Positions 50,072 to 64,000 of a stretch of DNA of 64,000 bases are shown one piece after another (the stretch's first letter is position 1; each line of letters begins with the position of its first letter). Made by a program: the position numbers and the translations under genes. Origin of the DNA: an uncultured delta proteobacterium. Lineage in GTDB: Bacteria > Desulfobacterota > Desulfobaccia > Desulfobaccales > 0-14-0-80-60-11. Below the pieces are notes generated by a model. That model worked only from the letters and a program-made list of their open reading frames with translations, made no database searches and was not told where the DNA came from. The stretch lies in NCBI GenBank assembly GCA_963812015.1, contig CAWETI010000002.1, positions 1,248,001-1,312,000 of the forward strand, read 5' to 3'.

Positions 50072-50893
50072 ATGTCGCCACTGCATGAACGAGGTTATTT
50101 AAGCACGGATATCGTGAGTTGGATTGAAAAACATCGGGCCGAGAACCAGGAATGGTTTGATCTCGCCGAAGATGTCAACCTTTTTGCACATAAAACTATG
50201 TATGACTTTTCAATACCTAAAAGCTCAGCTAAGCATCTACTCGTTTCGACTGCATATATCCGGTGCCTTAGTCAATATCAGGGCGCAATTTTGCTCGTTG
50301 AACGCGGCATGATTTATGAGGCGGCGACCTTAACAAGGGGACTCATGGAAACTCTATTTGTGCTTTGCGCCGCCGCTAAAAATTCAGAATTCGCGTTGCA
50401 GTATATAGACTCTAACGAACTGAAAAAACTTGACCTTGTAAGCAAGATGCTGCTTGCAAGCGAGTCTATCAGGGAGATTATCGAGGGAACGATTACCGAA
50501 GATGAAATTAAGAAGAAGCGTCAAGAGCTCAAGGCAAAAGGCATTCGAGATTTTACGATTGCAGAAGTAGCTGAAAAGGCAGATTTGATTGACTATCACA
50601 GAACCAACTATTCGTTCTTTAGTCTCATAGCAGCTCATCCTACCCCTAATAGTTTGGATAAGTATTTTGAGGCTGGTCCTAACGGAGAAGCTCTGAGTCT
50701 GTTGTGGGGTCCTGACGTTGAGGGCGTCAGCAGGATTCTATCAGTAGCGATTGAGAGCTCTATTATTGCCATAGAACGAGTAGGCGAAATCTTTGAGCAG
50801 CCGTGGCAGCAGCAGATTGAAGCATTCAAAAACAAATTCCGCAATCTTGGCGAGCAGATATCAGATTTCTCCATAGGCCACAAACACACCTAA
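50072..50893 (+). CDS. DUF5677-like hypothetical protein, low GC
   Basis: RGLME and Y..FS…AHP pattern; markedly lower GC than its neighbours. Confidence 0.6.
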   Translation: MSPLHERGYLSTDIVSWIEKHRAENQEWFDLAEDVNLFAHKTMYDFSIPKSSAKHLLVSTAYIRCLSQYQGAILLVERGMIYEAATLTRGLMETLFVLCAAAKNSEFALQYIDSNELKKLDLVSKMLLASESIREIIEGTITEDEIKKKRQELKAKGIRDFTIAEVAEKADLIDYHRTNYSFFSLIAAHPTPNSLDKYFEAGPNGEALSLLWGPDVEGVSRILSVAIESSIIAIERVGEIFEQPWQQQIEAFKNKFRNLGEQISDFSIGHKHT

Positions 50894-53582: not shown

Positions 53583-53738
53583 ATGGCCATGATCGCCTTT
53601 TATGCCGGTTTATTCATTGGTATTCTGTTGGGATTCTTACTCTCCTCTCTTTTGCCCTTTTCCCTGGCCGGAAGTGAGCCCGGGGAGCTGCCCGGCGAAG
53701 CCGAGGGGTATTCCCAGGCAGACCCCCTGGAGCCTTAA
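53583..53738 (+). CDS. Small single-TM protein (51 aa)
   Basis: Not in the ORF track. GGAG RBS; MAMIAFYAGLFIGILLGFLLSSLL…; resembles the N-terminus of the next ORF. Confidence 0.55.
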   Translation: MAMIAFYAGLFIGILLGFLLSSLLPFSLAGSEPGELPGEAEGYSQADPLEP

Positions 53739-54033: not shown

Positions 54034-54330
54034 ATGGGAACAATGATTTTTGGGGCGGGGACCCTGTTTGGCGTATTCCTGGGAGTAGTGTTTATTTCTC
54101 TGTTGGGTATGGCCCAAAAGGCTGACAAGGTCTATGACTGGCTGGATCCTGGCGAGGCCAAGGCCACTCCGGAGGATACTTACTATTTCCTCCCATCAGC
54201 AACCAGTTTGCCGACCGGCCGGGGAGAAGGCTGGCCGCCAAAAGATCCGGATGGGTTGCAGCCCGGGAAAGGGAGGATAAATCATGCCGGCATGCCCCGG
54301 CTGCGGGTTCTCCGGGGGGCGGACCTTTAG
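54034..54330 (+). CDS. Small protein with an N-terminal TM helix
   Basis: GGAGG RBS; MGTMIFGAGTLFGVFLGVVFISLLGMAQKAD…. Confidence 0.6.
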   Translation: MGTMIFGAGTLFGVFLGVVFISLLGMAQKADKVYDWLDPGEAKATPEDTYYFLPSATSLPTGRGEGWPPKDPDGLQPGKGRINHAGMPRLRVLRGADL

Positions 54331-54584
54331 GGGACCAGCCGGGGGAAATAGTCCCGGCCTGCTTGTCTTCCGGCTAGATGGACTGCGGTAAAAATATCTT
54401 CCAACCTGGTCTGATGGGGATCAAAACGCATCGTAAACAGGTCCTCCTGGGAGTCATAGGCCACTGACACGTTGCCGGGGAGGGTGGTAATGGCGGCGCA
54501 CACGGCGTCAGGACAGCCGCTTCACACGAACCCGCCTTGCTGCACCATGCCAGCCACCCGGAATTTGAGGTTACTGAGATTCAT
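54327..54584 (-). CDS. Heavy-metal-associated (HMA)-like candidate selenoprotein with a UxxC motif (in-frame UGA at 54522-54524)
   Basis: GGAGG RBS; MNLSNLKFRVAGMVQQGGFV-U-SG-C-PDAVCAAITTLPGNVSVAYDSQEDLFTMRFDPHQTRLEDIFTAVHLAG…; frame stays open 64 codons past the UGA. Confidence 0.75.
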
Positions 54585-55003
54585 GGGGAGCCCTCCACCT
54601 GTCTGGTCCTCCCAGCGCCCCAGGCGTTAAGTCGGGCCGACAAGTTTCTCTCAATAGTACTACATAGTCTCCCATCGAGCATCACCCTTCCGCAATTCAG
54701 CCACGTTGAACCCGCCGGCGACTCCGGTAGGTTTCGGACCGCCCTTGCGGACGGGAAAACCGTGACTATCCTTTACCCAGAAGGAGATACCGGGGCTGCA
54801 TCTCGGGAGAATAAGCCGCGATTCTTGCGAGTCCCGGCGCCCACAGAAAGAAGTGCGCCTGTCCTGCTGCCCAGGGGCCTGAACTCATCAGGCTCATTGA
54901 CAATCCTCTCCGGGTGTGGCATGAAAACTGGGCGGCAGCGGTAAAGCGTGATGGATGGTAACGCTCTTCCAGCCAGCCCCGGAGGGAATCGTCAGGAGAA
55001 AGC

Positions 55004-59441: not shown

Positions 59442-60371
59442 CTACTCAATATAACCCATAACATCCAACTGGTGGGCCACGTAGATCAATTCCCGGGCGT
59501 CGATCTGGCGGTGGCGTTGCGCGATCCAGGCCTGAAAGCGGCCGCTATCCAGTTCAGGGTGGCCATGCAGGGCCCGGCCGATGGTGTCGATGATGAAATG
59601 GAGAAAGTAGGCCTCATCGCCGGGATAGCCCGCCGGGCCGGGGAAGACCACCCAGTCGGAGCTGCCCGCCGCGGCCACCCGGGCGCCCGCCTTCTGAAGG
59701 CGCCGGAAGAGCCGGCGCCCGGTGACGCTGCTGCCGGAGAGCCGGCCCTGGCAAAGACGCGTGTCCATGGTGCGGTGATACAGGGCTTCGATGCAATGAT
59801 CCAGGTTCGGGTCGATGGGAGGCTCAAGAATGGTGCCCCCGTCGAAATTCAGGGTGAAATAGAAGAGGCCGCGGTCAGCCGCCAGGGACAACAGCCGGGG
59901 CAGGGTGGTGGCCAGGTCGAGGAGGTCCAGGACGGCATGGGCGACGAGAAGGTCCCAGGTCGATTTTCTCCCTTCCCGGTCCATAAAATCGAAGAGGTCG
60001 GCGGCTTTCAGGGTCACCCGAACCTCGGCGCCGGGGGGCCTCAAGACCATGGCCCCGTCCGCGTCCTCGAACAGGCTGGCGTGGTGCGCCGCCGCATACC
60101 GGCGGCAGCGCTGCCGGGCCGCCCGGATGAACTCCGTTTCGACATCGATGCCGGTGTACGCCCCCCGGGTGAGCACGCCCCAATCCAGCAGGCGCTCCAG
60201 CATGGTGCCGATGCCGCAGCCCACTTCCAGGACCCTGAGGGGGGCGGAGTTCGGCCGGTCCCGCACCGCCTGCACCAGGGTGTCCCACACCTGCCGGTTC
60301 AGGGAGCGGTCATCCAGGGGCTGTTTGGCGGCGAGATAGCGGATAAAGTCGGGAGCAGGCGGGCCGGTCAC
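59442..60371 (-). CDS. Class I SAM-dependent methyltransferase-like protein
   Basis: VLEVGCGIG, AHAVLDL and GSSDW motifs; last gene of the 59442-63848 operon. Confidence 0.85.
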   Translation of the reverse strand: MTGPPAPDFIRYLAAKQPLDDRSLNRQVWDTLVQAVRDRPNSAPLRVLEVGCGIGTMLERLLDWGVLTRGAYTGIDVETEFIRAARQRCRRYAAAHHASLFEDADGAMVLRPPGAEVRVTLKAADLFDFMDREGRKSTWDLLVAHAVLDLLDLATTLPRLLSLAADRGLFYFTLNFDGGTILEPPIDPNLDHCIEALYHRTMDTRLCQGRLSGSSVTGRRLFRRLQKAGARVAAAGSSDWVVFPGPAGYPGDEAYFLHFIIDTIGRALHGHPELDSGRFQAWIAQRHRQIDARELIYVAHQLDVMGYIE

Positions 60372-60373
60372 GG

Positions 60374-61453
60374 TTACCCCAGGAAACTTTTCAGGAAGGC
60401 CCGCCCCAGGGCGGCGGTTTCCTCCCAGGTGGGATGGGCCGCGGCGGCGTGATGCGCCGACAGGCTCAGGCGCTTCAGAAGCTCCCGGTCCTGCATCAGG
60501 AGGTTGAGATGGTGGGCCAGGGCGGCGGCATCCCCCGGCGGCACCAGAAAGCCGTTGTGGTCATGGTGGATGAGTTCCCGGGCGGCGCCGGCGGTTCCGG
60601 CGATGGCGGGCAGGCCGAAATGCATGCCCTCCAGATAGACGATGCCGAAGCCTTCGTAGGAGGAGGGCACCGCCAGGAGGTGGCTGGCAGCGCACCGGGC
60701 CGCCAGTTCCTGGGCGGGGAGGGCGCCCAGCAGGGATACCCCGGGGGTCAGGCCCGCATCCTGAATCTGGCGGCGGATAGTCTTGACATACGCGATATCC
60801 ATGTCCAGGCTGCCGGCCACCGTCAGCCGCCAACCGTCCCGGGGAAGGTTTGTAAGGGCCGTGAGCAGGGTGTGCAACTCTTTACGGGGGATCAGGTTGC
60901 CCACAAACAGGATGTGCAAAGGCCCGGGGGCGGTGGCCCGGGCCTTAATCTCGGCCCGGGTGATGGAGCCGGGCAGGCCGTTGCGGCCGGGAGACGCCAC
61001 CACCAGGGGCTGCTCCCGCCCCACCAAATCCTCCACGTCCTGCTTGGTGGTCCGGCTGACACAGATAAAACCGTCCACCGAGGCCAGGTAGCGTTTTTCC
61101 ACCCGGCGGTATAGTCGGGTGGGCCAGGCCGAATGGGTCTCCCGGCAGCGGAGATGGTGCACGATGGCGACCAGGGGGGTGGGAATCCGGGGATGGAGGC
61201 GCTGGTTGAGCCAGAAGCAGGAAGGGTGCACCAGTTCATCTTGGAGGAGGACATCAAAGGCGGCCTGCTCAAGTCGGCGGCGGAGCCCGGCGTTCAGGTT
61301 ATCCAGCAGGCTCACGCCATAGTGACGCCAGGGGAGACTGATGACTTCCACTCGGTCGCCCTGCTCCCTGAGATACCGGACCAGGTGGCGGTCATAGATG
61401 AAGCCCCCGGAAATGGTGTCCAGGCGGCCATAAATGAGCAGGCCTACCCGCAC
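60374..61453 (-). CDS. Glycosyltransferase family 4
   Basis: SGGFIYD, VGNLIPRK and PSSYEGFGIVYLE motifs. Confidence 0.92.
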   Translation of the reverse strand: MRVGLLIYGRLDTISGGFIYDRHLVRYLREQGDRVEVISLPWRHYGVSLLDNLNAGLRRRLEQAAFDVLLQDELVHPSCFWLNQRLHPRIPTPLVAIVHHLRCRETHSAWPTRLYRRVEKRYLASVDGFICVSRTTKQDVEDLVGREQPLVVASPGRNGLPGSITRAEIKARATAPGPLHILFVGNLIPRKELHTLLTALTNLPRDGWRLTVAGSLDMDIAYVKTIRRQIQDAGLTPGVSLLGALPAQELAARCAASHLLAVPSSYEGFGIVYLEGMHFGLPAIAGTAGAARELIHHDHNGFLVPPGDAAALAHHLNLLMQDRELLKRLSLSAHHAAAAHPTWEETAALGRAFLKSFLG

Positions 61454-61833
61454 TAACGTGCCTCGCGGTAGGCCGCCCAGGCGATTTCATTTTCCCAGAT
61501 TTTGACCGTCACCGCGCTGAGAGGCTCCTGGATGCGGCTCAAAAGCTGCTGGCCAAGGAGGCGGGCAAAGTTCTCGATGCTGGGGTTGAGCCCGACGAAT
61601 TCGGGGAGGTCGTTCAGGGTCTGGTCCCGGTAATAAGCCACCAGTTCCTCAAGGTGGGCTTCCACGGCCACGATGTCCACCAGGTAGCCGTGTTTATCCA
61701 GAATTTTCCCTTCCAACTGAACTTCCACCTGGTAGTGGTGGGAATGGAGTTCATTTTCAGCGCCCCAATCGCCGCCGAAGAGGTAATGCCGCGCCACGAA
61801 GTCTCGCTTCACCGCCAGGGTGTAGTTGTGCAT
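61453..61833 (-). CDS. COG0720 PTPS/QueD-fold protein lacking the canonical catalytic Cys
   Basis: FVARH, ENELHSH (instead of CxxxHGH), LNDL, NPSIE and IWE motifs. Confidence 0.88.
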   Translation of the reverse strand: MHNYTLAVKRDFVARHYLFGGDWGAENELHSHHYQVEVQLEGKILDKHGYLVDIVAVEAHLEELVAYYRDQTLNDLPEFVGLNPSIENFARLLGQQLLSRIQEPLSAVTVKIWENEIAWAAYREAR

Positions 61834-61905
61834 GAGGTGCTCCTTGGTTAAAAACAAGTTATTAACGGAAGCGAAAAATAGGTTACCTCATAAACCGAAA
61901 GCCAG

Positions 61906-62000
61906 AAAAAATCCCCCTAAATCCCCCTTTTGCAAAGGGGGACTTTAGACGCCATTCCGGTAATTTCCCTCCTTTGTAAAAGGGGGGATAGGGGGGAATT
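61906..62000. repeat. Inverted pair of CCCCCTTT..AAAGGGGG palindromic repeats inside the operon
   Basis: AAATCCCCCTAAATCCCCCTTTTGCAAAGGGGGAC … CCCTCCTTTGTAAAAGGGGGGATAGGGGGGAATT. Confidence 0.75.
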
Positions 62001-62090
62001 CCCCTGGATCGACTATCAGTTTAGCAATTTATTTAATGCTCCAGTTTATAAAAACGCCCCTGGCGACCTTATGGTCTACTCCGCCACCCT

Positions 62091-63116
62091 TCAATAGGTC
62101 AGGATTACCTGGATGGCGTCTTCCGGGTGGCGGTCGATCAAGGCATAGGCTTGGCCTGCCTGATCGATGGGAAAGCGATGGGTGATGAAGCGGGCTGGCT
62201 TCACCTGTTCCAGCATCTGCCAGGTGGTATGATAACGGCGGGTCTTGTTCCAGCGGCCGGTAAGCTCCGGGGCGATGCTGCTGACCTGGCTGCCGATGAG
62301 ACGCACCCGACTGCGATGGAAACTGCCCCCCAGGTTCAGATCGGACCTTTGAAGCCCGTACCAGGAGCCGATGACCACCCGGCCGCTGAAGCCGGTGGCC
62401 GCGATGGCCTGGTCCAAGGCGACGGGGTTCCCGGAAATCTCATAGCAGAGGTCGGCCCCGGGATAGGGGCGGGCGTCCTGGAGACTCGAGGCAAGACGCG
62501 CCAGGACGTCCGGGGCCGAGGGGTCCAGGCTGACGTGGGCCCCCAGGTCTTCGGAGAGCAGACGGCGCTTGGGGTAGAGATCCAGGGTCACCAGGGACGA
62601 CAGCGGCCAGCGGCTCAAAAGGGCGGTGAGGAGCAGCCCCACGATGCCCTGGCCGAAGATGGCCACCTGTTCCCCCGCCAGGGGTTGGCCGTCCAGGAGG
62701 AAGGTCACCGCGGTTTCCATGTTGGGAAAGAACACCGCATCCTCGGGAGTCAAACCGTCGGGCAGTCTGAGCAGTTCGTCCGGGGTAGCCAGGAAGTGGC
62801 TTTCGTGGGGATGGAAAGCGAAGACCAGCCTGCCTTCCCAATCGGGCGCTATCCCCCGGCCCAGCTCGATGATCTGGCCCACCGTGGCGTAGCCGTATTT
62901 TAGGGGAAAAGCGAAATTCCCCGCCAGGGCGGAGATGGTTTCATCCTTGGTCAGGTCCGCCGGCGCCAGTCCCCGGTAGATCAATAACTCGGTGCCCGGA
63001 CTGATGGCGGAAATGACGGTCTTCACCAACACCTGGCCAAAAGCCGGGGAGGGGAGGGTTTCGCTTTGCAGCGCCACCTGTCGGGGGGCGGTAAAATAGA
63101 GGGCCTGTCGTTCCAT
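62091..63116 (-). CDS. MDR-superfamily (zinc-binding-type) dehydrogenase
   Basis: SAISPGTE, YGYATVG, GQGIVG, GSWYG, FHRSR and SQVS motifs. Confidence 0.88.
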   Translation of the reverse strand: MERQALYFTAPRQVALQSETLPSPAFGQVLVKTVISAISPGTELLIYRGLAPADLTKDETISALAGNFAFPLKYGYATVGQIIELGRGIAPDWEGRLVFAFHPHESHFLATPDELLRLPDGLTPEDAVFFPNMETAVTFLLDGQPLAGEQVAIFGQGIVGLLLTALLSRWPLSSLVTLDLYPKRRLLSEDLGAHVSLDPSAPDVLARLASSLQDARPYPGADLCYEISGNPVALDQAIAATGFSGRVVIGSWYGLQRSDLNLGGSFHRSRVRLIGSQVSSIAPELTGRWNKTRRYHTTWQMLEQVKPARFITHRFPIDQAGQAYALIDRHPEDAIQVILTY

Positions 63117-63848
63117 TTAACTGCTCCATTCCGGTTCCCCGCGCAGCACCAGGTCATCGCCCAGTTGCTGGTAGCTGAGGTTCTTGAGGCGCGGAAAGCG
63201 CCGCAGGGAAGAATGCCCTAAATGATCCACTACCCGGAGGCCGCCCACCAGGAGGGGGGCGATGGTCAGGACGATCTGGTCCACCAACCGGGAGACGAGA
63301 AAACTCGTGATAATCTGGGCTCCCCCTTCCACCATCAGGCTGTTAATCCCCAGGGACCCGAGCTGTCCCAGGAGACCGCCCAGATCGACCCAGCCGTTGC
63401 TCCCCTGTAGCCGCAGGACCCTGGCCCCCGCCGCCTCCAGGGCTTGTTGCCGCTCGGGGTCGGCGGCTTCGCTGGTGGCAATCCAGGGGGAGCGGCGATT
63501 TTTTAGGAGGCTGGCATAGGGAGGAAAACGGAGGCGGCTGTCCACCACCACGGGTTGGGGATCTGGCCCCGACACCAGCCTGACGGTGAGGCGGGGATTG
63601 TCGGCGAGCACCGTGCCGATGCCCACCAGGATGGCCTCGTGGGCGGCCCTGAGACCGTGGGTCATGGCCATGGCTTGAGAACCGCTGAGGGCCAGGGGCC
63701 GCCCGGGACGGTCGGCAATACTGCCGTCCAGGCTCTGGGCGTAGCTGAGGGTGACCAAGGGGCGGCCGGTACGCCGGCGGTGGGCCGCCGCGGCTTGCAA
63801 GAACGCACATACCCGATCCAGGATCGGGATCGCTTTTTCAACCGGCAT
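63117..63848 (-). CDS. Stand-alone RibD C-terminal (pyrimidine reductase/DHFR-fold) protein
   Basis: YAQSLDGSIA, LVGIGTVLADNPRL, DSRLR and VEGGAQ motifs; no deaminase domain. Confidence 0.9.
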   Translation of the reverse strand: MPVEKAIPILDRVCAFLQAAAAHRRRTGRPLVTLSYAQSLDGSIADRPGRPLALSGSQAMAMTHGLRAAHEAILVGIGTVLADNPRLTVRLVSGPDPQPVVVDSRLRFPPYASLLKNRRSPWIATSEAADPERQQALEAAGARVLRLQGSNGWVDLGGLLGQLGSLGINSLMVEGGAQIITSFLVSRLVDQIVLTIAPLLVGGLRVVDHLGHSSLRRFPRLKNLSYQQLGDDLVLRGEPEWSS

Positions 63849-64000
63849 GCCCATTTCTCCTTGCATCACGCCCTGAGATAGGGTGAGGGGGCCCGGGTTC
63901 AAGCTGAGAAGAGAATATCGCCTGGATTAACCGGGTCAGGCCGTCCTATCTGTAACATGAGAATAGTGGCGGCCTTTGTCAAGTTGGGATGCCGGCGCGA

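Follow-up and report, generated by a model that had tools for sequence, protein, structure and literature searches.

A hidden UGA-containing gene in an order of anaerobic bacteria encodes a probable UxxC selenoprotein with a predicted HMA fold

The locus and its reading frame

The window, that is, the whole 64,000-nucleotide stretch analysed here, carries a hidden gene at positions 54584–54327 on the minus strand. The frame opens with an ATG followed by 19 further codons, is interrupted at codon 21 by a single in-frame TGA (54524–54522), and continues for 64 codons to a TAA (54329–54327). A ribosome-binding site (GGAGG, 54592–54596) lies upstream with a 7-nt spacer, and sites of the GGAG/GAGG type precede the matching start in most homologs. 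With TGA translated as U, the product has 85 residues and the motif U21-S-G-C24, whose Cys24 (54513–54515) is the predicted second ligand. A Gly-rich insertion of about 6 residues (codons ~14–19, 54528–54545) separates a Gly-Met pair from this UxxC motif in alignments, in a region where model confidence is low. The frame, its signals and its translation had been described in a sequence-only reading of this DNA, and all were recovered from the sequence. The gene is absent from the table-11 list of open reading frames (entries of at least 60 aa), as that reading had also stated.

A terminator-like stem was observed 26 nt past the stop codon (54286–54301, minus strand); such sites occur here at chance level (3 found, 2.6 expected in shuffles). 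The promoter scan assigned no site to the UGA gene. The gene stands alone between a block of lipoprotein, IHF and flavodoxin-fold oxidoreductase genes and a spermidine-synthase-like gene, all on the opposite strand, and none of its neighbors is metal-related. In metatranscriptomes, three runs from three studies shared 0.06 of the words. Metatranscriptome contigs from relatives, mostly 85–95% alike and covering the gene with its UGA region, were discounted as evidence of expression, since strand and level cannot be read from them and DNA is a possible source.

Several other features were observed in the window. Two small plus-strand ORFs (53583–53738 and 54034–54330) resemble each other in their hydrophobic N-termini and have no Pfam hit; of these, 54034–54330 overlaps the stop codon of the UGA gene by 4 nt, and relatives recur in several genus-level loci. 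Further along, an IS110-family transposase gene (PF01548, PF02371; 58274–59269, plus strand) is followed by minus-strand genes for a RibD C-terminal domain, zinc dehydrogenase, PTPS-like, family-4 glycosyltransferase and methyltransferase proteins (59442–63902), also present in two other genomes (G001, G014). A DUF5677 gene (50072–50893, plus strand) appears AT-rich by eye relative to its neighbors and was possibly inserted.

Conservation around the UGA, candidate SECIS and selenocysteine machinery

We read 76 homologous loci from 64 genomes, 73 of them within the order and 3 outside it. Homologs were expected to keep either UGA or Cys at the motif column if the reading as selenocysteine (Sec) was correct, and TGA was found there in 76 of 76 loci, many more than chance would give. 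Three codons downstream, Cys is present in 73 loci, a second TGA (giving UxxU) in both copies of genome G077, and Asn in one degenerate copy. The first 30 homologs share 40–79% identity with the window protein, and Val, Gly and Phe residues upstream of the UGA are invariant in all 30. Among 13 genus-level loci, pN/pS was 0.38 before the UGA and 0.34 after it, compared with about 1.0 in flanks outside the ORF. The protein is therefore under purifying selection on both sides of the UGA, the second pattern expected of a selenoprotein. Terminal stops, in contrast, vary (TGA 45, TAA 20 and TAG 4 in 69 unbroken frames); TGA is thus a normal stop in these genomes, and the invariance of codon 21 is specific. 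These counts are descriptive, as kin loci are not independent, and the codon counts exclude seven loci with frameshifts or indels; L159 additionally has an internal TAA. Frameshifts, an internal TAA or loss of the second Cys were recorded in L088, L094, L095, L096, L159, L169 and L170, which may be assembly errors or decaying paralogs.

A natural Cys form of the protein also exists. P0017 is full-length, its TGT at the UGA column was verified in a metagenome contig (L125), and it clusters with a Sec form on the tree (support 95/81), which suggests a Sec-to-Cys change. Divergent metagenome proteins P0079, P0141 and P0145 carry W-x-x-W at the motif, probably a UxxU read under another code. The N-terminus of P0079 is hydrophobic and contains Cys-Cys, suggesting an exported form.

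Constraint downstream of the UGA extends to the RNA. Across 38 loci, pS in codons +4 to +9 was 0.30, compared with 0.62–0.71 in the rest of the gene, and synonymous sites at +13 to +28 hardly change, as a SECIS element would predict. The Asp at +5 is encoded by GAC in 71 loci and GAT in 3, while the ratio elsewhere is 130:103. In 72 of 76 loci codon +8 has GC as its last two bases (elsewhere 322 of 913), although its residue varies; the constraint appears to shape the protein itself, limiting residue 29 to Arg, Cys, Gly or Ser because the codon must end in GC.

These observations led to a candidate SECIS, weak when taken alone, at +12 to +28 past the UGA (54494–54510, minus strand). Its stem consists of U12-G28, G13-C27, C15-G25, G16-C24 and C17-G23, closing a loop of C18 G19 U20 G21 U22, and 91.7% of cells are paired. 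A further 30 loci, fetched once this hairpin had been proposed, all retain its core (six stem bases and the G-U of the loop). The bSECIS model in Fig. 2 of PMC13188914 specifies a loop of 3–9 nt (G followed by G/U) located 16–37 nt from the UGA, an upper stem of 4–16 bp and an energy of at most −7.5. The loop of the candidate (N-G-U-N-N) and its 17-nt spacing from the UGA fit this model, while its stem comprises 3+2 bp with a mismatch. Its energy alone is −1.3 kcal/mol in the window, with a family median of −4.7 and a RNAalifold consensus of only −3.4. When 12 other TGA-containing frames of the genome and selD were folded for comparison, most of their hairpins were stronger. Covariation in the +12 to +28 hairpin did not exceed shuffles (223 of 500), and the hairpin is not kept in the three loci from outside the order. 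A constraint at the RNA level is thus shown, for which this hairpin is a candidate fold.

The pairing proposed in the sequence-only reading, GCGGC (+2 to +6) with GCCGC (+25 to +29), is the minimum-energy fold of this sequence (−9.1 kcal/mol, the best over 45 nt), but it pairs in only 76% of cells among 41 distinct homolog sequences. The alternative offered there, with GCCGU, pairs in 63%, against 91.7% for +12 to +28. Neither is probably the conserved structure. The GCGGC/GCCGC lower stem did show covariation above all 500 shuffles. This arises from a single outer pair, which 14 of 41 sequences do not form; the stem was not adopted because relatedness can give such covariation and because it sits where the ribosome would be. 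A further idea, that the Cys homolog P0017 has lost the SECIS, was rejected. In its DNA codons +5 and +9 are changed and G13-C27 is broken, yet the three pairs of the upper stem are kept, with a G-C flip (one case).

The window's assembly (G000; 3.96 Mb, 99.9% complete, 5.7% contamination) encodes the full machinery for Sec insertion, for which the sequence-only reading had proposed a search. All components exceed their curated cut-offs: selA (608 bits), selB (368), selD (373), which has an in-frame TGA of its own, and tRNA-Sec (74.7), which lies on the small contig C4 and is the sole tRNA with a UCA anticodon in the genome. Among carrier genomes tested, 35 of 37 have selA; it was not found in G003 (56% complete) and G044 (90%). 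Co-occurrence with selA is uninformative as support, since 50 of 53 genomes have selA. Other frames of the genome are likewise interrupted by TGA. Nine of the 10 scanned match selenoprotein-type families at E 1e-12 or better (FdhA, HdrA, VhuD/VhuA-type hydrogenase subunits, rhodanese and UXX-star), two of them over the cut-off. These frames were chosen as recognizable genes among 262 candidates for TGA read-through listed de novo; most of that list is noise, and it served only for this choice.

The selenoproteome of this genome is rich (loci L131–L140 and L018). It includes TGA-containing frames for HdrA (2 seen), FdhA-like (3 seen) and VhuD-like (3 seen) proteins, as well as for a hydrogenase large subunit, a short VhuU-like protein, UXX-star and a rhodanese. 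The others encode a thioredoxin-like TPR protein and, in 2 copies, an Fe-S protein that resembles heterodisulfide reductase and bears a YPEU motif.

Predicted fold, distribution and genomic settings

The window protein is predicted to have an HMA fold, as the sequence-only reading had proposed. AlphaFold2 was run on a 30-sequence alignment with Cys in place of Sec and the first four residues omitted. The model shows a beta-alpha-beta-beta-alpha-beta arrangement (pLDDT 86; E2–7, H20–29, E34–40, E45–50, H57–70, E76–79), with pLDDT below 50 at model residues 12–15, in the insertion region. In VIA-align the top 27 structural matches were HMA domains, the best being the B. subtilis CopA domain 1opz (Z 10.7, rmsd 1.4, 69 of 81 aligned). 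Against PDB chains and the genome's own CopZ, the UGA motif aligns with the HMA CxxC, before helix 1 and after the 6-residue insertion, which had also been recognized from the sequence. PF00403 scored 22.9 bits (E 1.2e-4), under its gathering cut-off of 24.8. At 14 residues in the model, the second helix is long, and a second insertion is likely, given a conserved Tyr seven residues past the Gly that ends HMA alignments. Going by the general architecture of HMA domains, both insertions would lie on the metal-binding face. In NCBIfam the window protein reaches no cut-off, the 30 aligned members have weak matches (best E 2e-8), and the two UxxU copies have no match at E 1e-12. A search of ESM Atlas with the Cys homolog returned only HMA-labelled or unnamed clusters, all under 0.9.

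A profile built from 30 homologs was searched against all 83 genomes of the order and identified the gene in 62. In a sample of 401 genomes of the phylum, full-length matches outside the order were limited to G077 (two copies) and G239, and the remaining matches inspected were ordinary HMA domains. Database homologs are labelled Desulfobacca or Desulfobaccales, which points to Desulfobaccales as the order. Plasmids gave no match, viral contigs gave no match to the TGA-containing pattern, and no fused longer form was observed at E 1e-10 or better among 8000 candidates, which is weak evidence. A scan of a genome collection with a peptide pattern carrying Cys at the Sec column, and hence blind to TGA, returned two weak loci, neither of which scored with the family profile.

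Most genus-level copies share the setting of the window copy. In other genera the gene is found beside pnp-ridA, a PNPase-like/M16 peptidase block, or xdhC-mocA. In 53 of 76 loci, no ars or mer genes were observed within the 5–6 kb (or shorter contig) read. A different setting is seen in 21 of 76 loci, where the gene lies among arsR, acr3, arsM, arsP, arsC, ccdA and thioredoxin-like genes; in 11 of the 76 it comes directly after arsM. Neighbors were counted by hand from the calls of a simple gene finder. In six of these islands (L085, L086, L095, L121, L141 and L146) the order is arsM, a DUF1462-like gene, gcvH, two DGC genes, the UGA gene, osmC and lipoamide dehydrogenase. The lipoyl cassette after arsM is possibly a reducing system for arsenic metabolism. 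Those of the six islands that were read over a sufficient length also have lipA or a gene for a lipoate ligase.

The tree (46 rows, 85 columns, without the frameshifted L088, L094, L095 and L096) leaves 18 of 43 inner branches open, and the placement of G239 and the G077 pair is unsure. The copies in ars settings form one clade (99/96), 12 of whose 15 rows are in such settings, and the window copy lies outside it. Several genomes carry both ars-clade and other copies. The window's genome has an ars island of its own (G000:C3:1494930-1501980), composed of arsR, acr3, usp, thioredoxin-like, ccdA, arsP-like and arsM genes. This island does not contain the UGA gene, which is therefore accessory there. 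The genome also encodes a separate Cys-type CopZ and a long ORF bearing an HMA domain.

A third setting is mercury-related. Both UxxU copies of G077 follow merR and a thioredoxin-like gene, and one comes directly after a MerP-like UxxU gene. At this locus (L098:1519-2069, G077:C122) two adjacent HMA genes, the MerP-like one (81.3 bits to NF041115) and the family member, each encode UxxU, so that four UGA codons fall within about 260 nt, downstream of merR, the thioredoxin-like gene and a small membrane ORF. The ORF preceding the MerP-like gene resembled MerT by eye but has no Pfam hit.

Proposed function and relation to known systems

Insertion of Sec at codon 21 is, in our judgement, very likely. 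For the function of the product, we favor (with a probability of about 0.6) SelB-dependent read-through yielding a soluble protein of the HMA type, in which selenolate and thiolate would together bind a soft ion for buffering or delivery. SelB would bind the predicted hairpin, which begins 11 nt past the UGA, and the UGA would be read as Sec to give a small cytoplasmic protein with the predicted HMA fold. The U-x-x-C pair would then bind a soft metal or metalloid, such as Cu(I), Hg(II) or trivalent arsenic, and the bound ion would be buffered or passed to another protein, in the manner of CopZ and MerP with their two cysteines. The partner may dock on a surface made up of the 6-residue loop insertion and the lengthened second helix. 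The window copy belongs to the lineage-wide copies that lack metal-related neighbors, and a separate paralog clade has been recruited to arsenic islands. The sequence-only reading had suggested a Sec-containing metal chaperone or redox protein; the Sec part of that suggestion is supported, while the metal or redox role is still a matter of inference.

The UxxC could instead act in redox chemistry (selenenylsulfide/dithiol), passing electrons to oxidized protein thiols, peroxides or arsenic enzymes and carrying no metal. UxxC selenoproteins are for the most part regarded as redox proteins (PMC13188914, section 7), the lipoyl/OsmC cassette surrounds the gene in 6 of 76 loci, and ccdA and thioredoxin-like genes surround the ars-island copies. 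We nevertheless hold this reading to be possible rather than likely. The predicted fold is that of HMA and not thioredoxin, the motif is at the HMA metal site, and the UxxU copies come after merR, one of them beside a MerP-like gene. Metal binding is favored on account of the fold and of the repeated recruitment to arsenic- and mercury-type operons.

A more specific version of metal binding, which we consider rather unlikely, is an uncatalogued selenium-based metalloid chaperone. With its selenolate-thiolate pair it would bind two-coordinate methylarsenite or arsenite and shuttle it between ArsM and the exporters ArsP/Acr3, with the insertions as docking face. The arsenic-island and the mercury-operon (UxxU) versions would have been recruited from an ancestral, lineage-wide copy, represented in the window. 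If so, the family would amount to a selenoprotein version of ArsD built on another fold.

A link to the supply of selenium or of a cofactor metal (Mo/W, Co), for example as a carrier or a sensor of selenium availability, appears improbable. The gene abuts xdhC-mocA in the order's second family (5 loci), and in four loci of one genus it follows a gene read by eye as a cobalamin adenosyltransferase. Each genus has its own neighbors, in a pattern that tracks descent, and these may therefore be incidental; molybdate and tungstate are not known to be HMA cargo.

It is very improbable that the UGA is a true stop, leaving a 20-residue leader peptide and/or a protein of 58–69 residues re-initiated past the UGA. 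This is how databases currently present the family. They contain 281 matches, and among the 120 listed (including P0003–P0006), 113 begin immediately past the UGA codon, 6 have Trp at this column and 1 has Gly (P0169); the family is annotated almost only in truncated form, as "CopZ" or as a hypothetical protein (113 of 120). The codon after the UGA is also often ATG in the ars clade. However, no start is conserved at this point, where AGC is present in the window and genus-level copies and GCC, CAG, ACG or ATC elsewhere, and the first strand of the modelled fold is upstream of the UGA. Codon 21 is never TAA or TAG in the 76 loci while terminal stops vary, and the TGT form of P0017 is continuous. 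Finally, decoding of the UGA as Trp (or Cys) through an alternative genetic code or suppression, to which the 6 Trp entries among the 120 could point, is scarcely credible, as 5 of the 6 also have Trp at the family's normal end followed by unconserved sequence, pointing to another code used by the gene caller, and as TGA ends 45 of 69 frames and only tRNA-Sec has a UCA anticodon in the genome.

With the selenoprotein metal-binding reading preferred, the family can be placed among known systems. HMA-type and heavy-metal selenoproteins listed in Table 1 of PMC13188914 include NF041115 (UxxU), named there "putative mercuric reductase", a UxxC cation-transporting ATPase and a mercuric transport protein. 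That table (119 families, 2026) has no stand-alone UxxC HMA protein with the motif of the window. Haft and Tolstoy 2025 was compared through the same table and NCBIfam, and the literature compared also included portions of bioRxiv 10.1101/2022.07.06.499078, PMC12013277, PMC1976440 and PMC6205960. No description of the family was found in the full-text literature searched, in which the family table of PMC13326102 perhaps lies outside the part covered. As Cys forms are very rare, searches based on Cys pairs would tend to miss this family. Its recognition adds a selenoprotein family found in three quarters of the genomes of one anaerobe order. The natural UxxC, UxxU and CxxC versions of one 85-residue scaffold offer a test set for selenium at the HMA metal site; through the ars-island paralogs, a connection of selenium use with arsenic methylation in anoxic habitats could be tested.

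Among these systems, ArsD is a small soluble protein that passes trivalent arsenic to a partner, as described in the portion of PMC6205960 compared, and a functional analogy with the ars-island paralogs is possible. ArsD is absent from the fold matches, and no arsA was recognized in the loci read. The membrane transporters and fusions represented by the UxxC cation-transporting ATPase E1-E2 (TIGR01525) and the MerT/CopZ fusion NF045683 similarly place Sec in heavy-metal transport motifs, whereas the window gene is stand-alone. Against MerP, the window protein scored 16.5 bits (TIGR02052 cut-off 92.55) and lacks a signal-like N-terminus, and of the mer-operon setting a merR context is seen only in the two G077 copies.

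The HMA domains of CopZ, MerP, Atx1 and P1B-ATPases (PF00403) share the predicted fold, with Z 10.5 to E. hirae CopZ (1cpz). The window protein differs in having Sec for the first Cys, the insertion after Gly-Met and the longer second helix. Its scores of 17.7 and 19.5 bits are below the cut-offs of the CopZ models NF033794, NF033795 and NF047957 (95, 91 and 85 bits), and the best E to a CopZ model among 30 members is 1.8e-7. There is no copA, csoR or cueR beside the window copy, and no copA or copper regulator was recognized among the recurring neighbor clusters scanned.

NF041115 is likewise a small stand-alone HMA-type selenoprotein. Its model matches 27 of 30 members weakly (best E 2e-8), and a gene close to this family (81.3 bits, cut-off 95) adjoins one UxxU copy. 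The window protein, at 20.8 bits against the same cut-off, is set apart by UxxC in 73 of 76 loci, the 6-residue insertion and a distinct C-terminal motif. Selenoproteins of the HMA kind are thus already known, and to these the window adds a real, well-supported hidden selenoprotein gene whose family is apparently uncatalogued.
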